From: Burkholderiales bacterium
GTDB taxonomy: Bacteria > Pseudomonadota > Gammaproteobacteria > Burkholderiales > SG8-39
DNA length: 64,000 bases
Direction: 5' to 3'
Assembly (NCBI GenBank): GCA_023383795.1
Contig: JAHDYJ010000007.1
Coordinates: forward strand, 9,363 to 73,362
Made by a program: the position numbers and the translations under genes. The notes beneath the pieces are model-generated. The model ran no database searches, had not been told where the DNA came from, and worked only from the letters and a program-made list of their open reading frames with translations. Shown piece by piece: positions 14,073 to 53,868 of this stretch (position 1 is the stretch's first letter; each line of letters opens with the position of its first letter).

Positions 14073-14253
14073 GCGCGGAGGCCCCGCCGGGAGAGTCCGC
14101 TCGAAGAATACTTTAGTACCGGGACCCATGCACCTGCGGGCGGCATCCGAAGCGGTCGTCGCGACCGCGGTAGCAGGACGCCTGACTGATTTTCCCGGCC
14201 CGCGCGCGCTGCCACACTGGGCTCGTCGTTCGCACGCTTGTGGAGGCGCAGAC

Positions 14254-15958: not shown

Positions 15959-17137
15959 ATGAACGAAGCCGTCATCGTCTCGACCGCCCGCACCGCGCTC
16001 ACCAAGTCCTGGCGCGGTGCGTTCAACAACACCCACGGGGCGAAGCTCGGCGGCTACGCCGTCAAGCACGCGCTCGAGACCGCCGGCGTCGCGCCGGCGG
16101 AGGTCGAGGACGTGATCATGGGCTGCGCGCTGCCGGAGGGCGCCACCGGCTCGAACATCGCGCGGCAGATCGCGATCCGCGCCGGCTGCCCGGTGCGCAC
16201 GCCCGGCGTGACGGTGAACCGGTTCTGCTCGTCGGGCCTGCAGGCCGTGGCGATGGCCGCGCAGCGCATCATCGCCGGCGAGGGTGACATCTTCGTCGCC
16301 GGCGGCGTCGAGTCGATCTCGTGTGTCCAGAACGAGATGAACAGGCACATGCTCGCGAACGACTGGCTGCTGCGGCACAAGCCGGAGATCTACTGGCCGA
16401 TGCTGCAGACCGCCGAATACGTCGCGAAGAAGTACGACATCGGTCGCGAGGCGCAGGACCGCTATGGCGTGCAGAGCCAGCTGCGCGCGGCGGCCGCGCA
16501 GAAGGCGGGCAAGTTCAAGGAGGAGCTCTTCCCGATCACCGCGCGCATGAAGGTGGTCGACAAGGAGACGGGCAAGGAGAGTGTCCGCGAAGTCCTCGCC
16601 GACCGCGACGAGGGCATCCGGGCCGACACCACCTACGAGGGCGTCGCGCAGATCAAACCGGCGGTCGAGGGCGGCGTGATCGCCGCCGGCAACGCGAGCC
16701 AGTTCTCCGACGGCGCCGCGGCCTGCGTCGTGATGAACGCGAGGCTCGCCGAGCGCCGCCATCTCGCGCCGCTCGGCGTGTTCCGCGGCTTCGCGGTCGA
16801 GGGCTGCGAGCCCGCCGAGATGGGGATCGGCCCCGTGTACGCGGTGCCGAAGCTCCTCAACCGAACCGGCCTCGGGATGGACGACATCGGGCTCTGGGAG
16901 CTGAACGAGGCGTTCGCCGTGCAGGTGCTCTACTGCCGCGACAGGCTCGGCATCCCGGACGAGATCCTCAACGTGAACGGCGGCGCGATCGCGCTCGGGC
17001 ACCCGTACGGCGTCAGCGGCGCGCGGCTGGTCGGCGCGGCGCTGCTCGAAGGCAAGCGCCGCGGCGTGAAGCACGTCGTCGTGACGATGTGCGTCGCCGG
17101 CGGCATGGGCGCCGCCGGGCTGTTCGAGGTGCTTTGA
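15959..17137 (+). CDS. Acetyl-CoA C-acyltransferase (thiolase)
   Basis: Track ORF, 392 aa. Active-site blocks [41 protein letters not shown] before the ATG. Confidence 0.92.
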
Positions 17138-17236: not shown

Positions 17237-18787
17237 GTGCCATCGCTGAGCCTCGGCGAAGTCCTGCGGGCGAGCGCGGCGCGCAACGCGCGCCACGAGG
17301 CAATCGTCGACGGGGCGCGCCGGATCACCTACGCCGAGCTCGACGGTCGCGTCGACCGGCTGGCGCACGCGCTCGCCGCGCGCGGCGTGCGCGGCGGCGA
17401 CGTCGTCGCGGTGCTCAGCCTCAACGGGCACGAGCTGCTGGAGGCCTATTTCGCCTGCGCGCGGCTCGGCGCGGCGATGTGCCCGCTCAACCCGCGCTCT
17501 TCGGCCGAGGAGGTCGCGTGGACGCTCGGGCACGCGGGCGCGAGGCTCGTCCTCGCCGAGGCCGAGCTGCAGGGCGGACTCGAGCGCGCGGCCGATGCGA
17601 TCGAGCTCGGCGTCGTGGTCCACCGCGGCGAGCCGGCGCGCCCCGGGTGGGCGCGCTACGAGGCGCTGATCGAGGCCGCGCCGGGCGCGCCGTTCGCCGG
17701 GCCGGAGCCGCAGGCCGACGCGCCGGTGCTGCTCCTGTACACGCTGAAGGGCCAGGGCGAACCGCTCGGCGCGACGCTCAGCCACGCGAACGTGCTCGCG
17801 GACACGCTCACCGCCCTCACCTACGCGCGCCTCGACGCGCGCGACCGCGTGCTGCAGGGCATGCCGCTCAACCACGTCGCCGGGCTGCACATCCTGACCA
17901 TCGCAGCGCTCGTCCAGGGCGCGACGGTGGTGATCGCACGGCAGTGGCGGCCGGACATCGTGTGCGAGCTCGTCGCGCGCGAGCACTGCACGATCACGGT
18001 CATGGTGCCGACCGCGTTGCGCCAGCTGCTCGAGAGCGAGGCGCTGGCGCGCGCCGACCTGCGCTCGCTCACGCGGGTGATCGGCGCCGCCGGCCAGTAC
18101 GACCGCGCGCTCTTCGCCGAGGCGCTCTACCGCCTGCGCCTGGAGCAGATGCTGTTCGGCTACGGGCTCACCGAGGCCTCCCCGATCGTCACCGTCGCGG
18201 CGACGAGCGCCGAGACGCTCTGGAAGGAGAACGCGCTCGGCTGGCCGGTCTGGTACAACCGCGTGCGCCTCGTCCGGAGCGACGGCACCGACGCGCCGCC
18301 GGGCGAGTCCGGCGAGATCCGGGTCAAGGGCCCCAACGTCTTCCTCGGCTATCACGACGCGCCGCTCGCCACGGCTGCGGCGCTCACGCCCGACCGGTGG
18401 CTGCGCACCGGCGATCTCGCGACGATGGACGCCGAGGGGTGCCTCTTCTTCGCCGGGCGCCTCGGCGCGAGCATCAAGTCGGGCGGCGAGAACGTCGACG
18501 CGATCGAGGTCGAGCAGGCGATCCTCGCGTGCGCGCCGGAGGTGCGCTCGGCCGCGGTCGTCGGCCGGCGCGATCTGAAGTGGGGCGAGCGGGTGATCGC
18601 CTGCTGCACGCTGCACGCCGGCCGCACGCTCGATGCCGCCGAGCTCGGGCGCCGGCTGCGCGAGCGGCTGGCGGGATTCAAGCTGCCGCGCGAGGTGCAC
18701 TTCCTCGACGCGCTGCCGCTCACCGAATCGGGCGCGATCGATCGTGCGCGCCTGCATGCGCTGCTCGATGGCGCGGTGCGCAAGTGA
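17237..18787 (+). CDS. ANL-superfamily (acyl-CoA ligase-like) protein with degenerate core motifs
   Basis: Track ORF, 516 aa (GTG start). Keeps GYGLTE, GEIRVKGPNVFLGY, RTGDLA, GRLGASIKSGGENV. However, the P-loop reads YTLKGQGEPLG and the C-terminal Lys position reads SGAIDR. Confidence 0.8.
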   Translation: MPSLSLGEVLRASAARNARHEAIVDGARRITYAELDGRVDRLAHALAARGVRGGDVVAVLSLNGHELLEAYFACARLGAAMCPLNPRSSAEEVAWTLGHAGARLVLAEAELQGGLERAADAIELGVVVHRGEPARPGWARYEALIEAAPGAPFAGPEPQADAPVLLLYTLKGQGEPLGATLSHANVLADTLTALTYARLDARDRVLQGMPLNHVAGLHILTIAALVQGATVVIARQWRPDIVCELVAREHCTITVMVPTALRQLLESEALARADLRSLTRVIGAAGQYDRALFAEALYRLRLEQMLFGYGLTEASPIVTVAATSAETLWKENALGWPVWYNRVRLVRSDGTDAPPGESGEIRVKGPNVFLGYHDAPLATAAALTPDRWLRTGDLATMDAEGCLFFAGRLGASIKSGGENVDAIEVEQAILACAPEVRSAAVVGRRDLKWGERVIACCTLHAGRTLDAAELGRRLRERLAGFKLPREVHFLDALPLTESGAIDRARLHALLDGAVRK

Positions 18788-18934: not shown

Positions 18935-19600
18935 CTACCGCTGCGCGTGCATTCCCTTCGCCTCCGAAGCGAGGGGGAGGGTCAGGGTGGCGGTCGGGCG
19001 CCTCGCGCGCCTGCGCTTCGCCGCGCGCGCCGCCGCCGGCACGAACACCGCCAGCAGGTCGTCGGCGAGCTCGGCGATGCCGAGCGGCCCGTCGCGCTGG
19101 TACCACTGCAGCGTCCAGTTGAGCGCGCCGAGCATCGCGAGGCGCAGCAGCCTGAGATCGCCGCTCACCAGCCCCGCGGCGGCGGCCTCGTCGAGCACCT
19201 CGCGCCACATCGCCTCGACCTCGTCGCGCAGGCCGACGACGCGCCGGCGCGGCCGCGCCGCGAGGCTGCGCCACTCCTGGATCACGACCGCCTGCTCGTC
19301 GCCGCCGCCGTGCAGCGCGGTCAGGTGGCCGAGGAAGAGCGCGCGCAGCCGCTCGAGCGGCGAATCGGCCGCCGCGAGCGGCCCGCGGGCGGCGGCGGCG
19401 AACTGCCGCATCCCCTCGAGCATCACCGCCACGAGCAGCTCCTCCTTGCTCGCGAAGTGATAGAAGATGCTGCCCGACTGGACGCCGACCGCGCGCGCGA
19501 TCTCGCGCGCCGTGGTGCGCTCGTAGCCGTAGCGGCGGAAGAGCGCGGCCGCGGCGGCGATCAGCCGGCGGCGGCGCTCCGGGTCCTCGGGGCGGGCCAT
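18935..19600 (-). CDS. TetR-family transcriptional regulator
   Basis: Track ORF, 221 aa. N-terminal HTH LFRRYGYERTTAREIARAVGVQSGSIFYHFASKEELL. Confidence 0.9.
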   Translation of the reverse strand: MARPEDPERRRRLIAAAAALFRRYGYERTTAREIARAVGVQSGSIFYHFASKEELLVAVMLEGMRQFAAAARGPLAAADSPLERLRALFLGHLTALHGGGDEQAVVIQEWRSLAARPRRRVVGLRDEVEAMWREVLDEAAAAGLVSGDLRLLRLAMLGALNWTLQWYQRDGPLGIAELADDLLAVFVPAAARAAKRRRARRPTATLTLPLASEAKGMHAQR

Positions 19601-19602
19601 GG

Positions 19603-19672
19603 CGCATTCTAGGCGGCGCCCATTAACTGAGCAAGCGCTTGATTAATTCCCCGGGCGCGGCCTAGAATGGCG
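19603..19672. promoter_or_regulatory. Divergent promoter/operator region with a 17-bp inverted repeat; each arm carries TAGAAT
   Basis: Left arm CGCATTCTAGGCGGCGCC (19603-19620) and right arm GGCGCGGCCTAGAATGG (19654-19670) match at 16/17 positions when reverse-complemented. Plus strand: TTGATT (19639-19644), 18 nt, TAGAAT (19663-19668). The only AT-rich patch lies between the arms. Confidence 0.4.
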
Positions 19673-19701
19673 CGGTCGCCCGTTCCGCCCTCCCCCCGCC
19701 C

Positions 19702-20631
19702 ATGAGCGAAGCCCTGCAGTGGCCCACCTTGCGCCGCATCGTCGTCGTCGGCGGCGGCGGGCTCATGGGCCACGGGATCGTCGCCGCCTGCCTGGCCGGT
19801 CACCCGACCGCCGAAGTGCATCTCGTCTCGCGCCGCCGGGAGTCGCTCGAGCACGGCATGGCGCTCCTGCGGAGCGGCCCCTTCGGGCTCGAGAACCTGG
19901 TGAAGAAGGGCAAGCTCTCCGGGGAAGCCCTCGCGGCGGCGCTCGAGCGCGTGCGTCCCGGCCTCGACATCGGCGCGGCAGCCGGCGGGGCCGAGCTCGT
20001 CTTCGAGACCGTCCCCGAGGCGGTCGCGGCCAAGCATGCGGTGCTCCGCGAAGTGGAGGCGGCTGCGCCCCGCTCGGCGATCATCGCCACGAACACGTCG
20101 TCGATCATGATCGGCGAGCTCGCCGGCGCGCTCGCGCATCCCGAGCGCCTGGTCGGGACGCACTGGTTCTACCCGGCGAACGTGATGCCGCTGGTCGAGG
20201 TGGCGCGCGGCGAGCAGACCGCGCCGTGGGCGGTCGACGCCGTCGTGGACTTCCTCGCGCGCCTGCGCAAGAAGCCGGTGGTCGTGAACGACGCGCCGGG
20301 CTTCTTCACCACCCGCTTCATCAACCTCTTCATCGCCGAGGCGATGCGCTCGGTGGAGAGCGGCATCTGCGGCATCGCCGAGGTCGACGAGATGGTGAAG
20401 ACCGGCCTCGGCTGGCCGATGGGCGTGTTCGAGCTCCTCGACAGGACCGCGTCGTTCGATTCCTGGTACCACGCGCAGGAGTACCTGCACGCGACGCTCG
20501 GCGAGCGCTACGCGGTGCCGCCGATCGCGCGCCGCGTGTTCGGCGCCGGCTACCGCGGCGCGCCCGCGCTCAAGCCCGGCAGCCGCGGCGGCTGGTACGA
20601 CTATTTCGGGTTGAGACCCCCGAGCCGATGA
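19702..20631 (+). CDS. 3-hydroxyacyl-CoA dehydrogenase (3-hydroxybutyryl-CoA dehydrogenase family)
   Basis: Track ORF, 309 aa. Rossmann VVVGGGGLMGHGIV, ATNTSS, HWFYPANVMPLVEV, PGFFTTRF. Confidence 0.88.
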   Translation: MSEALQWPTLRRIVVVGGGGLMGHGIVAACLAGHPTAEVHLVSRRRESLEHGMALLRSGPFGLENLVKKGKLSGEALAAALERVRPGLDIGAAAGGAELVFETVPEAVAAKHAVLREVEAAAPRSAIIATNTSSIMIGELAGALAHPERLVGTHWFYPANVMPLVEVARGEQTAPWAVDAVVDFLARLRKKPVVVNDAPGFFTTRFINLFIAEAMRSVESGICGIAEVDEMVKTGLGWPMGVFELLDRTASFDSWYHAQEYLHATLGERYAVPPIARRVFGAGYRGAPALKPGSRGGWYDYFGLRPPSR

Positions 20632-20743: not shown

Positions 20744-21931
20744 ATGAACGAGGTCGTGATCGTCGAGGCCTGCCGGACCGCGCAGGGCACGTTCGGCGGA
20801 ACGCTGCGCGACGTCCCGGCGCACGCGCTCGCGCGCCACGTCGTGAAGGAGGCCGTGCGGCGCGCCGGCATCGATCCGCTCGAGATCGAGGGCGTCGCGA
20901 TGGGCCAGGTCTACCAGAGCTCGGAGGCGCTCAACATCGCGCGCTTCTGCGCGATGGAGGCGGACCTGCCCTTCGCCGTCGCCGGCTACTCGGTGAACGC
21001 CGCGTGCTGTTCCTCGCTCGAGGCGGTGAGCTGCGCGGTGCGCGACATCGCCTGCGGCGACGCCCAGGTCATGATCGGCGCGGGCGTCGAGAACATGAGC
21101 GCCGCGCCCTACCGCGTCACCGGGCATCGCTGGGGCATGCGGCGCGGCCATTCGGAGATCATCGACCAGTTCGAGGAATCGACCTGGAGCGCATCGACGT
21201 ACAGGTTCGGCCGCTTCAACATGGGCATGTCGGGCGACCACATCGCGAAGGTCTACGGCATCTCGCGCGCCGAGCAGGACGAGTACGCGCTGCGCTCGCA
21301 GCAGCTCGCCGTGCGCTCGATCGACTGCGGCGCCTTCGCCGCCGAGATCACGCCGGTCACCGTGCAGACGCGCGCCGGTCAGGTCGAGTTCGCGGTGGAC
21401 GAGCACCTACGCCGCGACACCTCGCTCGAGAAGCTCGCGCGGCTCAAGCCGAGCTTCGGCGAGGGCGGCACGGTCACCGCCGGCAACGCCTCGGGCGTGA
21501 GCGACGGCGCCTCCGCCGTGCTGCTGATGTCGCACGCCAAGGCCGCTGCGCTCGGCGTCAAGCCGCTCGCGAGGTTCCGCAGCACCGCGCGCGTCGGCGT
21601 CGATCCGCGCCTGATCTGCATGAGCCCGGGCCCGGCGGGCAAGCTCGCGGTGGAGCGCGCCGGGCTGCGGCCGAAGGACATCGGCTGGTGGGAGATCAAC
21701 GAAGCGTTCGCCTCGGTCGTGCTGGCGTCGATGAAGGAGCTCGACATCGGCCTCGAGCGCGTGAACCCCGCCGGCGGCGGCATCGCGCTCGGGCATCCGG
21801 TCGGCAACAGCGGCTGCCGGACGCTGGTGACGATGGTGCACGCGATGCGCCGCGAGGGCATCCGTTACGGCTGTTGCACGATCGGCGGCGGCGGCGGCAT
21901 CGCCACGGCCGCGGTGCTCGAGCTTTGCTAG
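20744..21931 (+). CDS. Thiolase-family acetyl-CoA acyltransferase
   Basis: Track ORF, 395 aa. NAACCSSLEAV, GHPVGNSGCR, CCTIGGGGGIATA. GGAGAA before the ATG. Confidence 0.88.
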   Translation: MNEVVIVEACRTAQGTFGGTLRDVPAHALARHVVKEAVRRAGIDPLEIEGVAMGQVYQSSEALNIARFCAMEADLPFAVAGYSVNAACCSSLEAVSCAVRDIACGDAQVMIGAGVENMSAAPYRVTGHRWGMRRGHSEIIDQFEESTWSASTYRFGRFNMGMSGDHIAKVYGISRAEQDEYALRSQQLAVRSIDCGAFAAEITPVTVQTRAGQVEFAVDEHLRRDTSLEKLARLKPSFGEGGTVTAGNASGVSDGASAVLLMSHAKAAALGVKPLARFRSTARVGVDPRLICMSPGPAGKLAVERAGLRPKDIGWWEINEAFASVVLASMKELDIGLERVNPAGGGIALGHPVGNSGCRTLVTMVHAMRREGIRYGCCTIGGGGGIATAAVLELC

Positions 21932-21946: not shown

Positions 21947-23713
21947 ATGAGCGCTGTGCTCGAACCGCAGGGCAAAGGTGCGGCGGAAGGCGCCGCGGCC
22001 GCGCCGGCCGAGTATCCGCCGCAATTCAACCCGGAATTCCTCGAGGCGACGCGCCGGCTCGAGCACGAGTGGCGCGCGAAGTTCGACGCCGTCGCGCGGA
22101 AATTCGGCGTCGACCCGGCCGCCTATCAGCGCCGCACCGACTCCGGCCTGCCGGTGAAGCCGGCGTACTTCCCGCACGACGTGGCCAACGGCCGCTACGA
22201 CATGCTGACCGCGCCGGGCGTGTATCCGTTCACCCGCGGCCTTTACCCGGCGCAGTACCAGTTCATGTACTGGGCGAACCAGCCGGTGATCGGGTACGGC
22301 CTGCCGGAGGACACGCGCAAGCGCATGGACTACCTCGAGCGGCAGGGGATGACCGGGTACTTCGGCAACACGTTCTACAACCTGGTGTACGACCTCGTCT
22401 CGCACGAGGGCCTCGATCCCGACCACCCGGCCGCCGAGGGGCGCGTCGGGCAGTGCGGGATGGCGGTCTACTCGGTCGAGGACAACGCTCGGCTCTTCGA
22501 CGGTCTCGCGCTCGACAGGATCAACGTCATCCACATCTCGTACTACGAGGTGCTGCCGGTGCTCGCGCACTACCTCGCCTACGCGCGGCGGCGCGGCGTG
22601 CCCTGGTCGAAGCTCGGCGGCAACTCGATGAGCTGGTACTACCAGAGCGCCTACGTCGGCATGACCTGCTTCCCGCCCAAGGGCGGCATGGACCTCGCGG
22701 TGGAGCTCGTCAACTTCTGCACCCGCGAGATGCCGCGCTGGAACACGGTCAACATCTTCGGCTACGGGATGGAGGAGGCCGGCGCCACCGCGGTGCAGGA
22801 GGTCGCGTTCTCGGTCGCGGCGGGCATCGACTACGCGCGCGCCTGCGTCGCGAGCGGGCTCGCGCCGGACCGGTTCCTCTCGCGCTTCGGGTTCCAGATC
22901 TCGCAGTCGAACGACTTCTTCGAGGAGATCTGCAAGATCCGCGCGCTGCGCCGCCTGTGGGCGCGCAAGTGCCACGCGCTCGGCGCGCGCGACCCGAAGA
23001 GCATGCACGTCCGCATCCATACGCACACGGCCGGCTCGGTGCTCACCGCGCAGCAGCCGCTCAACAACCTGATCCGTACCACGCTGCACGCCTTCGGCGC
23101 CGCGCTTTCCGGCACCCAGGCGATGGAGGTGAGCTCGTTCGACGAGGCGCTCGCGATCCCGACCGAGCACGCGCACACGATGGCGCTCAGGATCCAGCAG
23201 ATCATCCAGGAGGAGTCGGGCATCACGCGCGTCGCCGACCCGCTCGGCGGCTCCTACTACGTCGAAGCGCTGACCGACCAGATCGAGGCGGCGGCGGAGA
23301 GGATCTTCGACGCGGTCGAGGCGCGCGGCGGCTACCACAAGTGCCACGACTTCGTGCGCTCGTCGATCGAGGAGAGCGCCGCGCGCTGGCGCGACCAGGT
23401 CGACGCGAAGGAGCGGATCGTCGTCGGCATGAACAAGTACGAGTCGGCCGAGGTGCAGGACATCGAGATCTTCCGCGTCGACCCGGAGAGCGAGCGCATC
23501 GCGGTCGAGCGGGTGCGCGGGTTGCGCGCGCGCCGCGACGCGAAGCGCTGGGAGGCCGCGATGGCGGCGCTCGACGCCGCCGCCGGGCGCTTCGCCGGCG
23601 GCGAGATCGGCGTCCTGATGCCGGCGATGATCGAGGCCGCCGACGCCGACGCCACGACCGGCGAGCTGATGGGCGTGCTCAAGAAGCGCGTGGGGTGGGG
23701 CTCTCCTTACTAG
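21947..23713 (+). CDS. Acyl-CoA mutase-like large (substrate-binding TIM-barrel) subunit, highly divergent
   Basis: Track ORF, 588 aa, AGGAGAGAG before the ATG. Family blocks YPFTRG, EEAGATAVQEVAF, FFEEICKIRALRRLWA, FDEALAIPTE, DPLGGSYYVEALT. Several canonical substrate-contact blocks are replaced (see findings). Confidence 0.8.
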   Translation: MSAVLEPQGKGAAEGAAAAPAEYPPQFNPEFLEATRRLEHEWRAKFDAVARKFGVDPAAYQRRTDSGLPVKPAYFPHDVANGRYDMLTAPGVYPFTRGLYPAQYQFMYWANQPVIGYGLPEDTRKRMDYLERQGMTGYFGNTFYNLVYDLVSHEGLDPDHPAAEGRVGQCGMAVYSVEDNARLFDGLALDRINVIHISYYEVLPVLAHYLAYARRRGVPWSKLGGNSMSWYYQSAYVGMTCFPPKGGMDLAVELVNFCTREMPRWNTVNIFGYGMEEAGATAVQEVAFSVAAGIDYARACVASGLAPDRFLSRFGFQISQSNDFFEEICKIRALRRLWARKCHALGARDPKSMHVRIHTHTAGSVLTAQQPLNNLIRTTLHAFGAALSGTQAMEVSSFDEALAIPTEHAHTMALRIQQIIQEESGITRVADPLGGSYYVEALTDQIEAAAERIFDAVEARGGYHKCHDFVRSSIEESAARWRDQVDAKERIVVGMNKYESAEVQDIEIFRVDPESERIAVERVRGLRARRDAKRWEAAMAALDAAAGRFAGGEIGVLMPAMIEAADADATTGELMGVLKKRVGWGSPY

Positions 23714-23754
23714 AACCGATCTCAAAATGCGAATGCGGTCGCGAAAGAGGGGAT

Positions 23755-23923
23755 CTACAAAAGGCTCGCCCCTTGTTCGTTCGGGATATACACAAGGGGC
23801 AATCTGCCCCTTGTTCGTACGACCTCGGTTCGGGAAGAAGCACGGCCGCGATTCTGAGATAGCCTCTGACCCTTCCCCGCAGGGGAAGGCACGACGCTCC
23901 CTCCCCCTTTGTGAGGGGGAGGG
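23755..23923. repeat. Composite repeat block inside the mutase inter-subunit spacer
   Basis: Two CCCCTTGTTCGT(T/A)CG boxes, the second within a perfect 9-bp hairpin ACAAGGGGC-AATCT-GCCCCTTGT (23792-23814). Then CCTTCCCC-GCA-GGGGAAGG (23871-23889) and CCCTCCCCC-TTTGTGA-GGGGGAGGG (23899-23923). Confidence 0.75.
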
Positions 23924-23986
23924 TCGGGGAGGGGGTGGCGCGGGCGCCTCCTCGCTATGATGACCCGCACAAGAACGGAACCAGTT

Positions 23987-24400
23987 ATGACCGACCGAAT
24001 CATCCGCGTGCTGCTCGGCAAGACCACCATGGAGTGCCACGACCGCGGCGTGCGCTATCTTGCGACCAAGCTTCGCGACGCGGGCATGGAGGTGGTGTTC
24101 ATCAACTTCCTCGAGCCGCGCGAGATCATCGACGTCGCCGTCGACGAGGACGTCGACGTGATCGGCATCTCGAGCTCGGTCGAGGGCCACATTCCGGTCG
24201 CGCGCGAGGTCATGCGCCGCCTGCGGGAGCGCGCGATGGAGGATGTCCTGGTGGTGTTCGGCGGCGTGATCCCCGAGCGCGACATCGGCCCGATGAAGGA
24301 GATGGGAGTCCGCGAGGTCTTCGGGCCGGGCTCGTCGGCCGAGGCGTTCATCGGGTTTCTCCGGGCCAACGTCCGGGAGCGGCACTTCGCCGCCGAATAG
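23987..24400 (+). CDS. Cobalamin-binding small subunit of the mutase-like enzyme
   Basis: In track ORF 23957..24400; I prefer ATG 23987 (MTDRIIRVLLGK..), which matches the short N-terminus of known small subunits. B12-binding fold blocks DVIGISSS and VVFGGVIP. The DxHxxG loop reads ECHDRG. Confidence 0.8.
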   Translation: MTDRIIRVLLGKTTMECHDRGVRYLATKLRDAGMEVVFINFLEPREIIDVAVDEDVDVIGISSSVEGHIPVAREVMRRLRERAMEDVLVVFGGVIPERDIGPMKEMGVREVFGPGSSAEAFIGFLRANVRERHFAAE

Positions 24401-24512: not shown

Positions 24513-25829
24513 ATGAAACGAAGCATCGTGGTCGGCACGATCGCCTCGCTCGCGCTTTTCGGTGCTCCGGCACTCGCGCAGAACGAGCAGTTCTTTCCGA
24601 TGAACGGCTACTGGGTGGGCCCGTACGCGGCCGGCGGATCGGCGATCTTCGGCGGCATGATCGACTACATGGCGATGGTGAACGCCCGCGACGGGGGCGT
24701 GGGCGGGGTCAGACTCACCTGGGAGAAGTGCGAGACCGAGTACAACAACGCGCGCGGAGTCGAGTGCTACGAGCGCCTGAAGACCAAGGGTCCGACCGGG
24801 GCGACGCTGGTGCATCCGCTCTCCACCGGCATCACCTACTCGCTGATCGAGAAGGCGACGGGCGACAAGATCCCGCTGGTGACCCTCGGGTACGGGCGCA
24901 CCGATGCGACCGACGGGCGGGTGTTCCCGTACATCTTCCCGCTGATCACCAACTACTGGTCGCAGAGCACCGCCAAGATCAAGTTCATCGGCATGCGCGA
25001 AGGCGGGATGGACAAGTTGAAGGGCAAGAAGATCGTGAACGTCTATCACGACTCGGCCTACGGCAAGGAGACCATCCCGATCCTCGACGCCCAGGCGAAG
25101 AAGTACGGGTTCCAGGTCACGCACATCCCGGTGGCGCACCCGGGCAACGAGCAGGGGGCGCAGTGGCTGCAGGTGCGCCAGATCCGGCCCGACTGGGTGA
25201 TCCTGCGCGGCTGGGGGGTGATGAACCCGACCGCGATCAAGGCGGCGCAGCGGGTCGGCTTCCCGCGCAACAAGATGCTGGGCGTGTGGTGGTCCGGCGC
25301 CGAGGAAGACACCATCCCGGCCGGCGACGCGGCGAAGGGCTACATCGCCGCCGGCTTCAACGTCTCCGGAACCAACTACCCGGTGATCAAGGACATCGAG
25401 AAGCACGTCTACGCCAAGAGCAAGGGCGAGATGGAGGACCGCTCGCGGCTGGGCAGCATCCTGTACAACCGCGGGGTGGTGCACGGCATCATCAACGTCG
25501 AGGCGCTGCGCACCGCGCAGGCCAAGTTCGGCAAGAAACCCCTCACCGGCGAGCAGGTTCGCTGGGGGCTCGAGAACCTGAACATCGACGAGAAGCGCCT
25601 GAAGGAGATCGGGGCGACCGGCTTCATGCAGCCGCTCAAGGTCTCGTGCATGGACCACGAGGGCGGCGGCGCGGTGAAGTTCCTGCAGTGGGACGGCGCG
25701 AAATGGAACGTGATCAGCGACTGGATCACCTCCGATCAGTCGCTCGTGCGTCCGATGGTCGAGCAGTCGGCCGCCAGGTACGCGAAGGAGAAGAACATCA
25801 CCCCGCGCGACTGCGCGAAAGAAGGCTGA
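24513..25829 (+). CDS. ABC-transporter periplasmic substrate-binding protein (Leu/Ile/Val-binding-protein-like family), orphan
   Basis: Track ORF, 438 aa. Signal peptide MKRSIVVGTIASLALFGAPALAQ; AGGGGAGGGGAAA before the ATG. No permease or ATPase gene adjacent. Confidence 0.8.
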   Translation: MKRSIVVGTIASLALFGAPALAQNEQFFPMNGYWVGPYAAGGSAIFGGMIDYMAMVNARDGGVGGVRLTWEKCETEYNNARGVECYERLKTKGPTGATLVHPLSTGITYSLIEKATGDKIPLVTLGYGRTDATDGRVFPYIFPLITNYWSQSTAKIKFIGMREGGMDKLKGKKIVNVYHDSAYGKETIPILDAQAKKYGFQVTHIPVAHPGNEQGAQWLQVRQIRPDWVILRGWGVMNPTAIKAAQRVGFPRNKMLGVWWSGAEEDTIPAGDAAKGYIAAGFNVSGTNYPVIKDIEKHVYAKSKGEMEDRSRLGSILYNRGVVHGIINVEALRTAQAKFGKKPLTGEQVRWGLENLNIDEKRLKEIGATGFMQPLKVSCMDHEGGGAVKFLQWDGAKWNVISDWITSDQSLVRPMVEQSAARYAKEKNITPRDCAKEG

Positions 25830-25908: not shown

Positions 25909-26997
25909 TCAGCGCGCCGGCACGCCGATCGCCACCGGCCGGATCGGCGAGCCCGCGCTGCCGCGCTCGCGCAGCGGCAGGATCATCGTGCACGAGGTCC
26001 ACACCTTGTCGCGTGCGAGCTCGCCGAGGTTCGCGCTCTCGATGTGATGGATGCCCGCCTCGGTGAGCAGGTGATGGTGCACCGCGAACGGCGTGCCGGG
26101 CGGCGTGCCGGCCGGGGGGCCGGCCTTGCCCTGCAGCTGCCCCTCGTTCACCGGGTCGACGAACGGCGTGTCGAGCCCGACCGCGACGACGCGCTTCTCG
26201 GCCAGGTATCTCGCCGCGTCGTACGAAAGCCCGGGCGCCTTGGTGTAGTAGACCTTCTCGGTATCGGGGTCGCGCCAGGCGTCGCCCCACCCGGTGTACA
26301 CGTACAGCACGTCGCCGGGCAGGATGCCGCGCCACTCGAGCCCCTGCGCCTTCAGCATCGCCTCGATGTCCTTCGCGGTGACGAGCGCGCCGGCTGCCAG
26401 GGCGCGGCCCTTGCCGAGGCGGCTCTTGGCGTCGAGCAGCACCGCGCTGGTGACGAGCGGCGGCGCCTTTTCCATGCCGAGCCGGTGCAGGAAGGCGTCC
26501 GGCGTCGGCTTCACGTCCTTCTGGGTGTACCCGCCGTAGTACAGAGCGCCTGCGGCCGGGTTCGGGCTCTTTCCGTCCCACGGCTGCTTCAGGTACGCGA
26601 AATGCCCGAGCGCGTCGATCTGCGTACCCTGCGCCTGCGGCTCGCCGGTGACGGTCTCGGTGTTGAACGCGTGCACGGTCCCCGGAAGCACCGCGGTCGG
26701 ATTGAACTTGTACGCGTACGGCCCGCTGAACGGCGACATCGGCATCGTGTTCGAGCGGACGTGCGAGAGCTCGTACGCCCTCGCGTTCGGCTGCGCGAGG
26801 AAATGCGCGCAGCGCATGAAGGTGCCGGCCCCGATCGCGTTCGCCATGCCGCGCTCGTCGCCGGCCGGCCACGGCGGGGCCGGCACCAGCGTCTTCGAGC
26901 GATCGACGGCGTCGCGCTCGGCAGCCTCCATCATCGCGTTCGTCGCGCAGCCGCCCGCGAGCGCCGCGCACACGCCGACGGTCATCAGTCGCATCAT
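25909..26997 (-). CDS. Cyclase-family (kynurenine-formamidase-fold) protein, predicted lipoprotein
   Basis: Last 362 aa of track ORF 25909..27177, starting MMRLMTVGVCAALAGGCAT (lipobox LAGGC) at 26997 with GGAGAGGA upstream. Family block GTQIDALGHF. Confidence 0.7.
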   Translation of the reverse strand: MMRLMTVGVCAALAGGCATNAMMEAAERDAVDRSKTLVPAPPWPAGDERGMANAIGAGTFMRCAHFLAQPNARAYELSHVRSNTMPMSPFSGPYAYKFNPTAVLPGTVHAFNTETVTGEPQAQGTQIDALGHFAYLKQPWDGKSPNPAAGALYYGGYTQKDVKPTPDAFLHRLGMEKAPPLVTSAVLLDAKSRLGKGRALAAGALVTAKDIEAMLKAQGLEWRGILPGDVLYVYTGWGDAWRDPDTEKVYYTKAPGLSYDAARYLAEKRVVAVGLDTPFVDPVNEGQLQGKAGPPAGTPPGTPFAVHHHLLTEAGIHHIESANLGELARDKVWTSCTMILPLRERGSAGSPIRPVAIGVPAR

Positions 26998-27188
26998 CGT
27001 CCTCTCCCCCTCCAGAGTGGTCTTCGCGGGAAAGAATACTCCTCCGGACCGACGGCCCCGTGCCGTCGCGACGACCGGCGCATTGCATTGCACCATGGCT
27101 ACGCCGGCCGCGGCGTCGCGCGTGGCCGGAGCGCGCGCCGAGGGATGCAGTAAACTCGGCCACCTCGAAGGAGGCACGCGAGGCGAAC

Positions 27189-29519
27189 ATGAACAAGTTC
27201 GGAATCGGTCAACCGGTGCGCCGCGTCGAGGACCCGCGCTTCCTCACCGGACGCGGCAGGTACGTGGACGACATCAACCTGCCGCACCAGGCGTACGCGG
27301 CGCTCGTGATCTCGCCGCACGCGCACGCGCGCGTGAATGGCGTCGACGCGTCGAAGGCGCTCGCGGCGCCGGGCGTGCTCTGCGTGCTGACCGGCGCCGA
27401 CGTCGTCGCCGAGAAGCTCGGCGGCCTGCCGCCGCAGTTCATGCCCGAGGACATGGGCGGCCCCAAGGGCTACCGCACGTTCCGGCCGATCCTCGCGACC
27501 GAAAAGGTGCGCTTCGTCGGCGACCGCGTCGCGATCGTCGTCGCCGAGACCGCGGCGCAGGCGCGCGACGCGGTCGAGCTGGTCGAGGTCGACTACGCGC
27601 CGCTCGCGGCCGTGGCGAACGCCGAGGACGCGCTCGCGGACGGCGCACCGAGGGTGTGGGACGATGCGCCGGGCAACCTCGCCTTCCCGCTCGCGCTCGG
27701 CAACAAGGACGCGACCGACGCGGCGTTCGCACGGGCGAAGCACGTAGTGAAGCTGCGCCTCGAGAACAACCGCCTCTCGGCGAACGCGCTCGAGCCGCGC
27801 GGCGCGATCGGCGACTACAGCGCCGCCGACGACGCCTACACGCTCTACACCAGCACGCAGAATCCGCACGGCGTGCGCACCGTGATCTCCCAGGCCGTGT
27901 TCCGCATGCCGGAGACCAAGCTCCGCGTGATCGCGCACGACGTCGGCGGCGGGTTCGGCATGAAGGGCGACACCTACCCCGAGGAGGCGCTGGTGCTGTG
28001 GGCGTCGCGCCGCGTCGGCCGGCCGGTGAAGTGGGCGCCGACGCGCTCCGAGAGCCTGCAGAACGACGACCACGGCCGCGACCAGGTCGTCTACGGCGAG
28101 ATGGCGCTCGACGGCGACGGCAGGATCCTCGCGATCCGCTCCACCGCGGTGCACGGCATGGGTGCGTGCGTCACCGGTGCGGCAGTCGTCCCGGTGCTCT
28201 ACGGGCTGAAGCTGGTGCCGAACGCGTACGCGATTCCGGCCGTCCACGTCTCGGCGAAGGCGGTGTTCACCAACACCACGCCGACCGCGCCGTACCGCGG
28301 CGCCGGGCGCCCGGAGGGCGTCTACCTCGCCGAGCGGCTGATCGACCAGGCGGCGATCGACCTCGGCATCGATCCGGTCGAGATCCGGCGCCGCAACCTC
28401 ATCGCGCCGGACGCGATGCCGTTCGCCTCGCCGACCGGCTTCACCTACGACAGCGGCGAGTTCGCGCAGGCGATGGACAAGTGCCTCGCGCTCGCCGACT
28501 GGAAGGGGTTCGACGCGCGCCGCAAGGCCTCCGAGGCCAAGGGCCGCCGCCGCGGGCGCGCCCTCACCTACTACATCGAGGACTGCGGCGTGTTCAACGA
28601 GCGCATGGAGCTCAGGTTCGATCCGAGCGGCAACGTGACGATCGTCGCCGGCACGTTCTCGCACGGCCAGGGCCACGCGACCGCCTACGCGCAGATGGTG
28701 TCCGACTGGCTCGGCGTGCCGTTCGAGAGCATCCGCCTGGTGCAGGGCGACACGAACCAGGTCTCGTTCGGCCGCGGCACCTACGCCTCGCGCAGCGTCA
28801 TGCTCGGCGGCGGCGCGCTGCGCGCGGCCGCCGACGCGATCATCGAGAAGGCAAGGCCGCTCGCCGCGCACCTGATGGAGGCCGCCGCCGGCGACGTCGA
28901 GTTCAGGGAGGGCAAGTTCGGCATCAAGGGCACCGACCGCGCGATGCCGCTCACCGAGGTCGCGCGCGCGTTCTACCGGCCGGTGGGCCTGCCGAGGCAG
29001 TTCGGCATCGGTCTGGAAGCGAGCGGCTCGGCCGCGACCGAGCCGCCGAACTTCCCGAACGGCTGCCACGTCTGCGAGGTCGAGGTCGATCCCGAGACCG
29101 GGCAGGTCGCGATCGACCGCTACACGGTCGTCGACGACGTCGGCATCGCGATCAACCCGCTGATCTGCGAGGGCCAGGTGCAGGGCGGCCTCGCGCAGGG
29201 CATCGGCCAGGCGCTCGTCGAGCACGTGATCTACGACCGCGAGTCCGGGCAGCTCGTGACCGGGTCGTTCGGCGACTACGCCATGCCACGCGCCGACGAC
29301 CTTCCCGGCACGGAGATGGACTTCCACAACGTGCCGTGCAGGACCAACCCGCTCGGCGTGAAGAGCATCGGCGAGGCCGGCTCGGTCGGCGCGCCGCCGA
29401 CGGTGATCAACGCGGTCCTCGACGCGCTGCGCCCGCTCGGCGTGAAGCACATCGACATGCCGGCGACGCCGCGCCGGGTGTGGGAGGCGATCCGCGCGGC
29501 GGGCGCGAGCGGCGCATGA
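27189..29519 (+). CDS. Xanthine-dehydrogenase-family molybdopterin-binding large subunit (CoxL form-II-like)
   Basis: Last 776 aa of track ORF 27060..29519, starting MNKFGIGQPVRRVEDPRFLTGRGRYVDD. Shows GGGFGMK and the loop APYRGAGRPEG. Confidence 0.88.
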   Translation: MNKFGIGQPVRRVEDPRFLTGRGRYVDDINLPHQAYAALVISPHAHARVNGVDASKALAAPGVLCVLTGADVVAEKLGGLPPQFMPEDMGGPKGYRTFRPILATEKVRFVGDRVAIVVAETAAQARDAVELVEVDYAPLAAVANAEDALADGAPRVWDDAPGNLAFPLALGNKDATDAAFARAKHVVKLRLENNRLSANALEPRGAIGDYSAADDAYTLYTSTQNPHGVRTVISQAVFRMPETKLRVIAHDVGGGFGMKGDTYPEEALVLWASRRVGRPVKWAPTRSESLQNDDHGRDQVVYGEMALDGDGRILAIRSTAVHGMGACVTGAAVVPVLYGLKLVPNAYAIPAVHVSAKAVFTNTTPTAPYRGAGRPEGVYLAERLIDQAAIDLGIDPVEIRRRNLIAPDAMPFASPTGFTYDSGEFAQAMDKCLALADWKGFDARRKASEAKGRRRGRALTYYIEDCGVFNERMELRFDPSGNVTIVAGTFSHGQGHATAYAQMVSDWLGVPFESIRLVQGDTNQVSFGRGTYASRSVMLGGGALRAAADAIIEKARPLAAHLMEAAAGDVEFREGKFGIKGTDRAMPLTEVARAFYRPVGLPRQFGIGLEASGSAATEPPNFPNGCHVCEVEVDPETGQVAIDRYTVVDDVGIAINPLICEGQVQGGLAQGIGQALVEHVIYDRESGQLVTGSFGDYAMPRADDLPGTEMDFHNVPCRTNPLGVKSIGEAGSVGAPPTVINAVLDALRPLGVKHIDMPATPRRVWEAIRAAGASGA

Positions 29520-30691
29520 AGCGCAGCACCGACCGCATCCTGACCACGCACGTCGGCAGCCTGCCGCGGCCGGCCGATCTGCTCGAGATGACGCTCGCCC
29601 GCGACCGCGGCGAGCCGTACGACGCGCAGGCGTACCCCGCCCGGTTGCGGTCGGCGGTGGCCGAGGTCGTGCGGGCGCAGGCCCGTGCCGGCATCGACGT
29701 CGTCGACGACGGGGAGTTCGGCAAGCCGGGCTTTATCCACTACGTCAATCAGCGGCTGACCGGCTTTGCCCCGGCGAGCGGCGCACCGCCGCAGAGCCCG
29801 TTCGCGGACTCGCGCGAGTACCGGGCGTTCCCGGAGTACTACGCGGCGGAGGCCCGCGCGCATCCGAGTCCCGCGGCCAAGGCGCCGCACATGGAGTGCG
29901 TGGGGCCGATCACCTACTGCGGCCACGAGGCGCTCGCCACCGACATCGCCAATCTCGAGGCCGCGCTCGCCGAAGTCGAGGTCGAGGAAGCCTTCATGCC
30001 GGCGGTCTCGCCGTCGAACGTCGAGGAGTGGCAGCGGAACCGCTACTACAAGACCGACGAGGAGTTCGTGTTCGCCGTCGCCGAGGCGATGCGCGAGGAG
30101 TACAAGGCGATCGTCGAGGCGGGCATCGTGCTGCAGATCGACGATCCGCGCCTGGTGACCTATTACAACGTCACGCCGGAGGCGAGCGTCGCCGACTGCC
30201 GCAGGTGGGCCGAGACGCGGGTCGAGGCGCTGAACCACGCGCTCGCCGGCCTGCCGCGCGAGCGCATCCGCTTCCACACCTGCTACGGCATCAACATCGG
30301 CCCGCGGGTGCACGACATGGACGTGAAGGACATGATCGACATGATCCTGCGCGTGAACGCCGGCGCCTACTCGTTCGAGGCCGCCAACCCGCGCCACGAG
30401 CACGAGTGGAAGGTGTGGAAGGACGCGAAGCGTCCCGCCGGCACCGTGCTGATCCCGGGCGTGATCACGCACTCGAACGTGATGGTCGAGCACCCCGAGA
30501 CGGTCGCCGATCGGATCGAGCGCTTCGCCGCCGCGGTCGGTCGCGAGAACGTGATCGCCGGCGCCGACTGCGGCTTCGGCACCTTCGCCGGCTCCGAGGA
30601 GATCCAGGAGCGGATCGTGTGGGCGAAGCTCGCGGCGCTCGCCGAGGGCGCGCGCCTCGCCACGCGACGGCTCTGGGGCCGCGGCGGATGA
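29516..30691 (+). CDS. Cobalamin-independent methionine synthase II family protein (MetE-like catalytic domain)
   Basis: ATG 29516 overlaps the upstream TGA (ATGA). MKRSTDRILTTHVGSLPRP.., FHTCYG, GADCGFG. Last 391 aa of track ORF 26648..30691. Confidence 0.8.
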   Translation: MKRSTDRILTTHVGSLPRPADLLEMTLARDRGEPYDAQAYPARLRSAVAEVVRAQARAGIDVVDDGEFGKPGFIHYVNQRLTGFAPASGAPPQSPFADSREYRAFPEYYAAEARAHPSPAAKAPHMECVGPITYCGHEALATDIANLEAALAEVEVEEAFMPAVSPSNVEEWQRNRYYKTDEEFVFAVAEAMREEYKAIVEAGIVLQIDDPRLVTYYNVTPEASVADCRRWAETRVEALNHALAGLPRERIRFHTCYGINIGPRVHDMDVKDMIDMILRVNAGAYSFEAANPRHEHEWKVWKDAKRPAGTVLIPGVITHSNVMVEHPETVADRIERFAAAVGRENVIAGADCGFGTFAGSEEIQERIVWAKLAALAEGARLATRRLWGRGG

Positions 30692-30809: not shown

Positions 30810-31952
30810 TCAGGCGCTCCCCCATACCGACTGCGCCACCTCGACGACGAGCTCGAGCTTGCGGCGCTCGTCGTCGATCGTCACCGGGTTGCCGAGGTAG
30901 TTGCTCGAGAAGCCGCACTGCGGCGAGAGGCACAGGCGCTCGAGCGGAACGTACCGCGCGGCCTCGGCGACGCGCGCCGCGAGCGCGTCGGCCGACTCGA
31001 GCTCCGGGGTCTTGGTCGACACCAGGCCGAGCACGACGATCTTGTCCTGCGGCATGAAGCGCAGCGGCGCGAAGCCGCCCGCGCGCGGGCTGTCGTACTC
31101 GAGGAAGAACGCGTCCACGTTGATCCCGTTGAACACGCGCTCGGCGATCGGGTCGTAGCCGCCCTCGGCCATCCAGTGGCCCTGGTAGTTGCCGCGGCAG
31201 GTGTGCATCGCGAGCGTCATGCCCGCCGGCCGATTCGCGGCGATCCTGTTGATCGTGCGTATGTAGTCATCGAGCATCGCGTCCGGCTCGTCGCCGCGCG
31301 CGCGGAACTTCGCGCGCTGGCGCTCGTCGCACAGGCACGAGGTCATCACCTCGTCGAGCTGGACGTAGGTGCAGCCGGCCTCGCCGAGCGCCCGGAGCTC
31401 CGCGATGTACGCGTCGGCAAGGTCGTCCCAAAAGGCGGCAAGGTCGGGGTACGCGGTCTTGCTGATCGTCTCGCGGCTCGCGAAGCCGTAGAGCGTCTGC
31501 GGCGCCGGCATGGTGACTTTCGGCGTTCCCTTCGTCACGACCGACTTCAAGAAGCGGAACGGCCCGACGTTCACGCTCCGGCGCCAGCGGATCGGGCCGG
31601 TGACGTCGATGCGCGGCGCGGGCACGGTGTGCCCTTTCTCGTCGCGGAAGCGCTCGGCGCCCCGGTACGAGCCCGCGACGCCCTCGAGCGAGAGCAGGAA
31701 CTCGCTCCACCAGATGCGCCGGCGGAACTCGCCGTCGGTGATCGAGCGAAGCCCCGCGTCCTCCTGCAGCTTCACCACCTCGCGGATGCACTCGTCCTCG
31801 AGCGCGCGGAGCTCCGCGTTCTCGTGCGGGCCGAAGTTGTGGTCGAGGTCGTGCGGCCCGAGCAGGCGCTCGCGCGCCTGCATCAGTCTCTCCGGGCGCC
31901 GCAGGCTGCCGACGTGGTCGGCGCGGAACGGCGGCGTCGTGCGTGCATTCAT
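30810..31952 (-). CDS. MetE-catalytic-domain-only protein, paralogue of 4920..6023
   Basis: Track ORF, 380 aa. PPFRADHVGSLRRP, TDGEFRR, MHTCRGN, LSPQCGFSS. GAGAGGAGA before the ATG. Confidence 0.8.
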   Translation of the reverse strand: MNARTTPPFRADHVGSLRRPERLMQARERLLGPHDLDHNFGPHENAELRALEDECIREVVKLQEDAGLRSITDGEFRRRIWWSEFLLSLEGVAGSYRGAERFRDEKGHTVPAPRIDVTGPIRWRRSVNVGPFRFLKSVVTKGTPKVTMPAPQTLYGFASRETISKTAYPDLAAFWDDLADAYIAELRALGEAGCTYVQLDEVMTSCLCDERQRAKFRARGDEPDAMLDDYIRTINRIAANRPAGMTLAMHTCRGNYQGHWMAEGGYDPIAERVFNGINVDAFFLEYDSPRAGGFAPLRFMPQDKIVVLGLVSTKTPELESADALAARVAEAARYVPLERLCLSPQCGFSSNYLGNPVTIDDERRKLELVVEVAQSVWGSA

Positions 31953-51357: not shown

Positions 51358-51474
51358 GGAACGCAGGCGCCGCCGCCGGGCACCCGATCGGCGGTCCGGC
51401 GCGTGCGTCGCCCACCGCGCTTTCGCCACGCTTCTTTCCATCACACGCTGCACGCCCGCGGAAACACGAGATCG

Positions 51475-52767: not shown

Positions 52768-52811
52768 GCGGCGCCCGGACATTTCCTCATCGGACAAACG
52801 GGGGAGGACAC

Positions 52812-53834: not shown

Positions 53835-53868
53835 CACGAGCCAGACCGAGCGCGCTGCACGCCTACCC

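Follow-up and report, generated by a model that had tools for sequence, protein, structure and literature searches.

Adenosylcobalamin (AdoCbl)-dependent acyl-CoA mutases are known in about half a dozen specificities, namely methylmalonyl-CoA mutase (MCM), isobutyryl-CoA mutase (ICM, with IcmF), 2-hydroxyisobutyryl-CoA mutase (HCM), RCM (the RcmAB enzymes), ethylmalonyl-CoA mutase (ECM) and pivalyl-CoA mutase (PCM). Substrate contacts in human MUT are made by Tyr110, His265 and Arg228 (PMC11988910), and the hcm/rcm clusters carry hcl (for the 2-hydroxyisobutyric acid (2-HIBA)-CoA ligase), meaH and a GntR regulator (PMC7176365). Here we describe a pair of mutase genes in a contig of a Burkholderiales bacterium (JAHDYJ010000007.1, assembly GCA_023383795.1, positions 9,363 to 73,362), a stretch of 64,000 nt with ~72% G+C that we refer to as the window. 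The first gene (21947-23713, + strand) encodes a large, catalytic subunit of 588 aa in which the substrate pocket has been remodelled, and the second (23957-24400, + strand) encodes a cobalamin-binding small subunit of 147 aa.

Real genes were picked from the window with a filter on G+C at third codon positions (GC3), which is 0.96 for the large and 0.91 for the small subunit; both open reading frames (ORFs) are present. The large subunit matches Pfam PF01642 (MM_CoA_mutase) over its full length (518 bits, E=2.6e-155, profile positions 1-512 of 512) and TIGR00641 with 463 bits (cut-off 304), and the small subunit matches PF02310 (B12-binding, 78 bits) and TIGR00640 (114 bits). Among sequences in the PDB, the large subunit is closest by score to human MCM (E=1e-99, 35% identity), followed by Aquincola HcmA (E=3e-94, 36% identity), and the small subunit is closest to the Aeropyrum B12-binding subunit 2yxb and then to HcmB (4r3u_C). 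An AlphaFold2 (AF2) model of the large subunit (pLDDT 73, 20-sequence alignment), used for fold confirmation only, agrees with the MCM and HCM folds (Foldseek TM ~0.69), with the pocket loops poorly modelled. The more specific NCBIfam equivalogs are far from reached: 396 bits against a cut-off of 876 for MCM (NF006944) and 148 bits against 1500 for IcmF (NF045497). On these matches the gene pair is evidently a real two-subunit member of the acyl-CoA mutase superfamily, which bears out an earlier note on this DNA that had described a two-subunit B12 acyl-CoA-mutase-like enzyme.

Pocket residues were mapped through HMMER alignments to human MCM (2xij/8gju) and HcmA (4r3u), considering the blocks between conserved flanks. 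The block WTIRQYAGF reads WANQPVIGY, which places Val114 at the position of Tyr89 (human Tyr110) and Gln112 at that of human Arg108. GQQG------LSVAFD is replaced by GMTGYFGNTFYNLVYD, with a 6-residue insertion (138-143) and Val147 at the position of HcmA Asp117. In place of GTIQNDILKEFMVRNT stands GGNSMSWYYQSAYVGMT, where Ser227 corresponds to Gln197 and Gly238 to Arg207 (human Arg228); SGYHM reads FGYGM, with Gly274 for His244 (human His265), and HCQT reads HTHT, with His360 for Gln330. Two MAFFT alignments yield columns identical to those of HMMER, so all five block substitutions listed in the earlier note are reproduced. Misplaced gaps can be dismissed as their cause, since the three alignments give the same correspondences, and alternative gap placement cannot restore the canonical His, Tyr, Arg and Gln. 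To these blocks we add a strand that was absent from the note, TQSLHTN, which reads TQAMEVS (SLHTN to AMEVS) and contributes Glu394 and Ser396. The remodelled pocket residues are Val114, Val147, His196, Ser227, Gly238, Gly274, His360 and Glu394/Ser396, and the MCM contact triad Tyr89/Arg207/His244 is represented by Val114, Gly238 and Gly274. The FDEAL block is intact: F398-D-E400-A-L aligns with human MCM, and D399, E400 and A401 are invariant in the clade described below. We take its glutamate (Glu370 in P. shermanii MCM, Glu400 here) to be the residue that binds the adenosyl ribose.

The remodelled sequence is widespread. More than 100 relatives at 60-97% identity were recovered from 5.8 billion proteins, and their sources include Burkholderiales, Steroidobacteraceae, Thermaerobacter, Methylomirabilia, Actinomycetia and Hyphomicrobiales; the clade also occurs in Alphaproteobacteria, Acidimicrobiia, Streptomyces, Nocardioides and Bacillota. 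The nearest relative, at 97% identity, comes from a Burkholderiales metagenome-assembled genome (MAG) that is probably of the window's own lineage, and among the cultured carriers are Streptomyces colonosanans MUSC 93, Streptomyces sp. NPDC001292, Nocardioides sp. Root140, Nocardia australiensis and Microtetraspora sp. With each GTDB species represented by one genome, a scan gave 103 relatives, 80 of which were retrieved and listed (below, L-numbers denote related genomic loci and P-numbers 50%-cluster representative proteins). The most specific name attached to the relatives is the NCBI term 'acyl-CoA mutase large subunit family protein'; JGI labels them with the generic 'methylmalonyl-CoA mutase N-terminal domain/subunit'. 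Across a 20-sequence alignment (58-97% identity) the signature blocks W109-V114, G137-D149, G225-M228, Y273, H358-T361 and Q391-V395 are invariant, and this invariance spans six phyla; the His244 position is Gly in the clade, occasionally Glu, Cys or Asp. The pocket is conserved under constraint and is not that of a decaying copy.

Among 1.84 billion 50%-cluster representatives, the top match is 51% identical and groups with the clade, and the next are at 45%, 42% and 40%. In a neighbour-joining (NJ) tree, the clade and the representatives P0121 and P0122 lie outside the group uniting MCM and HCM. No characterised member was found in literature searches or among source names. Because the signature is invariant, the tree position is outside MCM and HCM, the scores are far below the equivalog cut-offs and no characterised member came to light, the sequences support a distinct and uncharacterised clade whose contact residues differ from those of every studied mutase. 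Of the earlier suggestion that the pair belongs to an uncharacterised clade with a new substrate, the clade is upheld by the signature, the tree and the low equivalog scores; the new substrate is what we infer from it.

Loss of the canonical histidine extends beyond the clade, as the His244 equivalent is missing in 70 of the 127 nearest full-length 50%-cluster representatives, which have Asn, Asp, Gly, Val or others instead. The MM_CoA_mutase family is therefore far more diverse than its characterised enzymes would lead one to expect, with many unstudied pocket types. Desulfobacterota and Chloroflexi variants of a wider 'GYFG-insertion' superclade have Phe, Ile or Cys at the His244 position and different neighbours. 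One sister subclade, 46-48% identical (L077, L079-L082 and L085, from Desulfobacterota, Syntrophaceae and 'tar biofilm' MAGs), keeps the GYFG insertion and has the motifs WVNQMSLGY, SYNLPHD, CGYF/AGYF (Phe at His244), HIHT and TNALHTS; it adjoins acyl-CoA dehydrogenases, not a thiolase and a 3-hydroxyacyl-CoA dehydrogenase (3HCDH), and probably represents another new specificity in anaerobes.

The strongest functional clue, missed by the earlier note, is the conserved set of thiolase, 3HCDH and TetR neighbours. In the window, the conserved module comprises a divergently transcribed TetR-family regulator (18935-19600, - strand; TetR_N and TetR_C_24), a 309-aa 3HCDH (19702-20631, +; PF02737, PF00725) and a thiolase annotated as acetyl-CoA C-acyltransferase (20744-21931, +; Thiolase_N, Thiolase_C; TIGR01930, 418 bits), which ends 16 nt upstream of the large-subunit gene. 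The top PDB matches of the 3HCDH are 3-hydroxybutyryl-CoA dehydrogenases, and it reaches no NCBIfam equivalog. Neighbours were counted by tblastn within 6 kb of 79 related loci, and include the small subunit (65 loci), thiolase (55), 3HCDH (51), MeaB (38), TetR (36), crotonase (29), ligase (13) and acyl-CoA dehydrogenase (12, mostly with relatives in Desulfobacterota and Chloroflexi that are distant, at 43-52% identity). When all ORFs in the related loci were clustered de novo, no further conserved neighbour family emerged; over the two analyses TetR homologues occur in 36-44 of the 79 loci and acyl-CoA dehydrogenases in 12-17. The same core of thiolase, large and small subunit, 3HCDH, TetR_C_24 regulator and MeaB recurs in loci of six relatives from different phyla, with crotonase and a CoA-transferase or acetyl-CoA-hydrolase/transferase as optional additions. 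Loci in which we saw the module itself come from Rhodobiaceae, Hyphomicrobiales, Thermaerobacter, Methylomirabilia, Actinomycetia and Streptomyces; in the last of these the gene order of the operon is thiolase, TetR, ligase, crotonase, large subunit, small subunit, 3HCDH, MeaB. An AbfT/Cat-type CoA-transferase neighbours the mutase in L003, L044 and L045, and an AbfD-like protein does so in L007.

Further genes flank this core in the window. Upstream lie a second thiolase (15959-17137, +; thiolase domains, NF005494 727 bits, above cut-off) and an AMP-forming acyl-CoA ligase (17237-18787, +; AMP-binding domains). The ligase has 71-92% identical orthologues in the same position in L009-L012 and L021, and a 40-41% identical ligase is found in Streptomyces, Nocardioides and Nocardia operons; it probably activates the free-acid substrate in this lineage. 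Its best PDB matches are feruloyl-CoA synthetase (8wev, the top one) and fatty-acyl-CoA synthetases; it is not HCL-like, and a role as a 2-HIBA-CoA ligase finds no support. Directly downstream of the mutase is a periplasmic solute-binding protein with a signal peptide (24513-25829, +; Peripla_BP_6, PF13458, 137 bits). It is conserved beside the operon in L009 only, with 59-62% identical homologues ~8 kb away in L014, L016 and L018; it possibly serves substrate uptake, and the association is weak.

Cofactor handling shows little that is unusual. The small-subunit loop, E26-C-H28-D-R-G31, aligns to DGHDRG, and across 62 clade small subunits it reads D-x-H-D-R-G in 50 and E-x-H-D-R-G in 12, with Asp and Glu swapping between relatives 79-80% identical to the query. 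The cobalt-ligand His (His28), HDRG and the GG pair (G102-G103) are invariant in all 62. Because Asp and Glu alternate among close relatives and the ligand His is invariant, the Glu for Asp in the DxHxxG loop is a neutral polymorphism. The SxL motif is in register here as S72-S-S74. The canonical SxL is S-[ST]-S (Leu to Ser) in 60 of the 62 small subunits, accompanied by a one-residue deletion after Asn50, and these two features could bear on the accepted lower ligand or cobamide. A MeaB homologue is absent from the entire 64-kb window by tblastn, no adenosyltransferase was found among the ORFs put to Pfam, which leave parts of the window uncovered, and neither a cobalamin riboswitch nor any other Rfam family matched anywhere in the window. 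In related loci meaB lies within the operon in 38 of 79 cases, including the Burkholderiales relatives L014-L019 (78-80% identical), and the relatives' MeaB proteins score above the TIGR00750 cut-off. This operon position of meaB speaks for ordinary AdoCbl handling and against an altered chemistry of the cofactor. The earlier note had cited the ECHDRG loop and the missing MeaB towards a suggestion of altered chemistry. Both observations are correct as descriptions of the window, but the loop has Asp in most relatives and the absence of MeaB is local; altered cofactor handling finds no support, given the Asp/Glu polymorphism and meaB in the related loci.

How the pair relates to the characterised mutases can now be considered, beginning with HcmAB of Aquincola tertiaricarbonis (4r3u). 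Both systems have two separate subunits of matching size (588/147 aa here, 562-584/136-158 aa there), Arg207 is replaced by a non-basic residue in both, and the HCM product, 3-hydroxybutyryl-CoA, would suit the neighbouring dehydrogenase and thiolase. The pair could then be an isofunctional 2-hydroxyisobutyryl-CoA/3-hydroxybutyryl-CoA mutase with a differently built pocket, its product being converted by the neighbours to two acetyl-CoA. A module in which nothing beyond mutase, 3HCDH and thiolase is conserved is precisely what the breakdown of activated 2-HIBA would require, some loci include a ligase or CoA-transferase, and the PDB matches of the dehydrogenase point the same way. HcmA Ile90 and Asp117, whose defining role in the pocket was reportedly established by Kurteva-Yaneva et al. 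in 2015, are Val114 and Val147 here, however, and the His of SGYH, the Gln of HCQT and SLHTN are replaced by Gly, His and AMEVS, with the 6-residue insertion preceding the Asp117 strand. The known clusters combine the hcl ligase with GntR, whereas the window has a ligase of the FadD/feruloyl-CoA-synthetase type and TetR. Because Ile90 and Asp117 are not kept and the types of ligase and regulator differ, the clade, judged by these features, is not HCM.

The RcmAB enzymes of Kyrpidia tusciae and Bacillus massiliosenegalensis are (R)-specific 2-hydroxyisobutyryl-CoA mutases, specific for (R)-3-hydroxybutyryl-CoA; they too have two subunits, and they occur with MeaB/MeaH. RcmA pocket residues are given as I95, V122, V172, H174, Y252 and F296 in the supplement of PMC11599936, and by these reported residue numbers only, not by sequence alignment, V122, V172, H174, Y252 and F296 would correspond to Val147, Val194, His196, Tyr273 and Phe316 here, with Ile95 facing Val114. 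Five of six identities match on this count, with spacings of 33, 47, 2, 77 and 43 residues against 27, 50, 2, 78 and 44. The Val at the HcmA-Asp117 position and the V-x-H strand, as in B. massiliosenegalensis RcmA on those numbers, speak for an isofunctional enzyme. The first spacing, 33 residues against 27 in HcmA and in RcmA so numbered, results from the 6-residue insertion, which RcmA appears to lack, and speaks against it. No RcmA-like representative emerged when 270 retrieved proteins were searched by pattern, and neither Kyrpidia nor B. massiliosenegalensis is among the 80 listed of the 103 relatives in the species-representative scan. On balance we consider an HCM or RCM function unlikely, though the least so of the alternatives.

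An ICM-like enzyme, or another mutase for alkyl-branched substrates, would pass isobutyryl-CoA/n-butyryl-CoA or a similar, for instance valine-derived, acyl-CoA into beta-oxidation with the neighbouring crotonase, dehydrogenase and thiolase and a housekeeping acyl-CoA dehydrogenase. Such a role would be in keeping with the crotonase and acyl-CoA dehydrogenase genes in part of the 79 loci, with the loss of the carboxylate-binding Arg and with the small or hydrophobic Val114, Val147 and Gly238 in place of polar residues. The acyl-CoA dehydrogenase nevertheless lies outside the core module, mainly with the distant Desulfobacterota and Chloroflexi relatives. ICM has a signature of Phe80 at the Tyr89 position and Gln198 at the Arg207 position, with His244 kept. 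The Phe and Gln are Val114 and Gly238 here and the His is gone, and the invariant polar His196, His360, Glu394, Asn111, Gln112 and Ser227 argue against a purely alkyl substrate. IcmF of Cupriavidus metallidurans (4xc6) shares the superfamily and fold (TM 0.65) and a non-carboxylated substrate, but is only 21-22% identical (117 bits, confined to residues 258-526), carries its G-protein as a fusion and has an equivalog whose cut-off is far out of reach. We regard this option as improbable. An ordinary MCM is suggested by the JGI names of the relatives and by the best overall match, to human MMUT (2xij/8gju; P. shermanii enzyme 1req), with which the pair shares the TIM-barrel and Rossmann architecture (TM 0.69), FDEAL, DxHxxG-type motifs and, in relatives, genes for a MeaB/MMAA-type chaperone. 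It differs in having separate rather than fused subunits, in Val, Gly and Gly at Tyr89, Arg207 and His244, in its score below the MCM equivalog cut-off and in neighbours that are a thiolase and 3HCDH, not an epimerase or propionyl-CoA carboxylase. The defining residues refute this assignment, to which we attach practically no weight.

A last alternative is that the protein is no usual mutase at all. It might be a paralogue that is catalytically dead or regulatory, as the MutA beta subunit is in MCM, or use the fold for other chemistry or for a non-CoA substrate. Gly for His244 and Met and Gln for Arg82 and Arg87 would fit this, as would the loss of His244 from more than half of the nearest representatives, by which the family seems to explore other solutions. 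Set against it are pocket residues that are invariant and not decaying, a conserved cobalt-ligand His, GG pair and adenosine-binding FDEAL, a dedicated MeaB chaperone in 38 operons, partners that are all CoA-thioester enzymes, and the lack of any nearby gene for a catalytic partner like the MCM alpha subunit. We find it very improbable.

We instead favour, as the probable explanation, a functional heteromeric AdoCbl mutase whose specificity class is new and which feeds or drains a 3-hydroxyacyl-CoA into the dehydrogenase-thiolase pair. Since the clade is distinct, uncharacterised and strongly constrained, a new specificity is likely. The cofactor would be bound base-off/His-on through His28 of the small subunit, with the adenosyl ribose held by the retained Glu400 of FDEAL and a MeaB G-protein chaperone supplied, in relatives, from the same operon. 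Around the acyl group that migrates, the shell would be rebuilt, with the carboxylate-binding Arg207 changed to Gly, the Tyr89 lid to Val and the general-acid His244 to Gly, and with His196, His360, Glu394, Asn111, Gln112 and Tyr148 as new invariant polar residues. Loss of Arg207 would exclude a carboxylated substrate of the MCM/ECM type and argues against ECM membership, and the new polar residues (Tyr148 apart) argue against a plain alkyl substrate. A pocket so remodelled suggests that the substrate is not methylmalonyl-, ethylmalonyl-, isobutyryl- or, in the manner of HCM, 2-hydroxyisobutyryl-CoA.

The constant partners are an (S)-type 3HCDH, a thiolase and a repressor only, and for this reason we propose delivery of a 3-hydroxyacyl-CoA. 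The role would most likely be catabolic: a branched or tertiary short acyl-CoA barred from beta-oxidation would be isomerised to a 3-hydroxyacyl-CoA or its immediate precursor, which would then be oxidised and thiolytically cleaved to acetyl-CoA and a second acyl-CoA. By the 1,2-shift of the thioester carbon that is usual in the family, a 3-hydroxyacyl-CoA product would imply a 2-hydroxy-2-methylacyl-CoA, as in reactions of the HCM type; this is the simplest candidate substrate, made here by the upstream ligase. Alternatively, the branched partner may be a 2-methyl-3-hydroxy- or 3-oxoacyl-CoA, arising from a 4-hydroxy- or 4-oxoacyl-CoA. More tentatively, and short of calling it probable, we suggest that the enzyme carries out a rearrangement outside the repertoire of the characterised acyl-CoA mutases, in which the acid catalyst has moved from the canonical His244 to His360 or His196. 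A longer 2-hydroxy-2-methylacyl-CoA converted to 3-hydroxyacyl-CoA, or a 4-hydroxy/4-oxoacyl-CoA converted to 2-methyl-3-hydroxy/3-oxoacyl-CoA, would be examples that we hold with the same reserve. Membership of the family, the motifs for the cofactor, the pocket that is both remodelled and conserved, and the recurring gene module are demonstrated; the direction of the reaction, the identity of the substrate and the replacement of His244 by His360 or His196 are all matters that we infer. A general compensation, in which a His at position 330 is gained for a lost His244, was considered and set aside: such a His occurs in 11 of the 70 representatives without His244 and in 4 of the 57 with it, a weak association across the 127. 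The RcmA-like Val and V-x-H features, as judged from the reported residue numbers, and the AbfT/Cat and AbfD-like neighbours are a weak pointer to a hydroxy-C4-type substrate.

Several points weigh against this proposal. The identity of the substrate is read from the gene neighbourhood only; the AF2 model has pLDDT <50 at pocket loops 109-111, 145-147, 362-368 and 395-403, which allows no structural argument about the pocket. The substrate-tunnel arginines of P. shermanii MCM, Arg82 and Arg87 (human Arg108), are Met107 and Gln112 here, so that CoA may itself be bound differently. In MCM, His244 is regarded as important to catalysis (PDB 1e1c is the H244A mutant); an enzyme that lacks it could work by another mechanism or might even have no mutase activity. 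3HCDH enzymes such as the neighbouring ones usually show (S)-specificity, whereas an (R)-product would be expected from the RcmA-like features of the pocket, as taken from the reported numbers. Nor does the ligase belong to the 2-HIBA-CoA ligase type. Finally, the hairpin-bearing 244-bp spacer between the two subunit genes might disturb their co-expression.

This spacer (23714-23956) has a lower G+C, short direct repeats and two perfect 10-bp hairpins, at 23792-23814 and 23899-23923, with the arms ACAAGGGGCA/TGCCCCTTGT and CCCTCCCCCT/AGGGGGAGGG. The large-subunit stop and the His codon are 325 nt apart here; in 53 related loci this distance has a median of ~56 nt and a maximum of 216. Because the subunit genes are adjacent or overlapping in relatives, the spacer is probably a lineage-specific insertion, perhaps REP-like. 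The divergent intergenic region between TetR and 3HCDH (19601-19701) holds, by pattern matches only, a 17-nt inverted repeat (19605-19621 / 19653-19669, CATTCTAGGCGGCGCCC / GGGCGCGGCCTAGAATG) that flanks the palindrome AACTGAGCAAGCGCTTGATTAATT at 19625-19648 and a sigma-70-like promoter (19639-19668); the repeats of 19605-19669 could be a TetR operator.

Elsewhere in the window, a GAF-containing hybrid histidine kinase (11128-13401, +) lies just upstream of the thiolase-ligase-mutase cluster, followed by a LuxR-type response regulator (13413-14357, -) whose ORF is overlapped at its 3' end by a DUF6647 protein (14071-14709, +). Three paralogous cobalamin-independent methionine-synthase-like (Meth_synt_2) genes, at 4920-6023 (+), 29516-30691 (+) and 30810-31952 (-), lie dispersed about a putative cyclase (25909-27177, -), the large subunit of a molybdopterin hydroxylase (~27190-29519, +) and a TRAP transporter, together a catabolic cluster; the second of them was recognised from its translation and from a Meth_synt_2 gene that occupies the corresponding place in the related locus L005, not by the scan. 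The nearby Mo-hydroxylase hinted at a mutase of the auxin (iaa) pathway, an idea that we set aside, since the mutase there acts on a carboxylate of the succinyl type and Arg207 is absent here. Two distant thiamine pyrophosphate (TPP) enzymes of the benzoylformate-decarboxylase (BFD) type (1351-3057, +, and 33031-34773, -; ~91-127 bits to BFD) are not HACL- or oxalyl-CoA-decarboxylase-like. One neighbours an AMP-ligase (2-1146, -) and the other the TRAP transporter genes (DctP 31977-32987, DctM 35875-37596, DctQ 37155-37670). Being benzoylformate-decarboxylase-like and 9-20 kb away, they were discarded as 2-hydroxyacyl-CoA lyases of an acetone/2-HIBA route. Further downstream are E1-alpha and E2 components of a 2-oxoacid dehydrogenase complex at 49364-52767 and beyond, for which the expected E1-beta (~50392-51403) and E3 (~52767-55239) genes were left unresolved by the ORF filter, then a 3-hydroxyisobutyrate-dehydrogenase-like gene (55239-56120) and a pair of acyl-CoA dehydrogenases (60947-63934, -).

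Each new specificity of AdoCbl acyl-CoA mutases has opened a pathway, such as the ethylmalonyl-CoA pathway and the degradation of methyl tert-butyl ether (MTBE)/2-HIBA and of pivalate, and has also given metabolic engineers a tool for C-C rearrangement. The clade described here is common in soil, marine and sediment bacteria of at least six phyla, and its pocket is completely rebuilt yet invariant, without the histidine that is taken for the family's catalytic acid, although the family holds many such unexplored branches. A compact, portable module of mutase, MeaB, 3HCDH, thiolase and TetR makes the substrate experimentally tractable, and there are cultured carriers. Identification of the substrate would give a function to a gene set mis-annotated as methylmalonyl-CoA mutase and would sharpen predictions of B12 dependence in environmental genomes. 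If the novel rearrangement is true, it would establish a B12-dependent route of catabolism that is new, as well as a second mechanism by which the family reaches its products.

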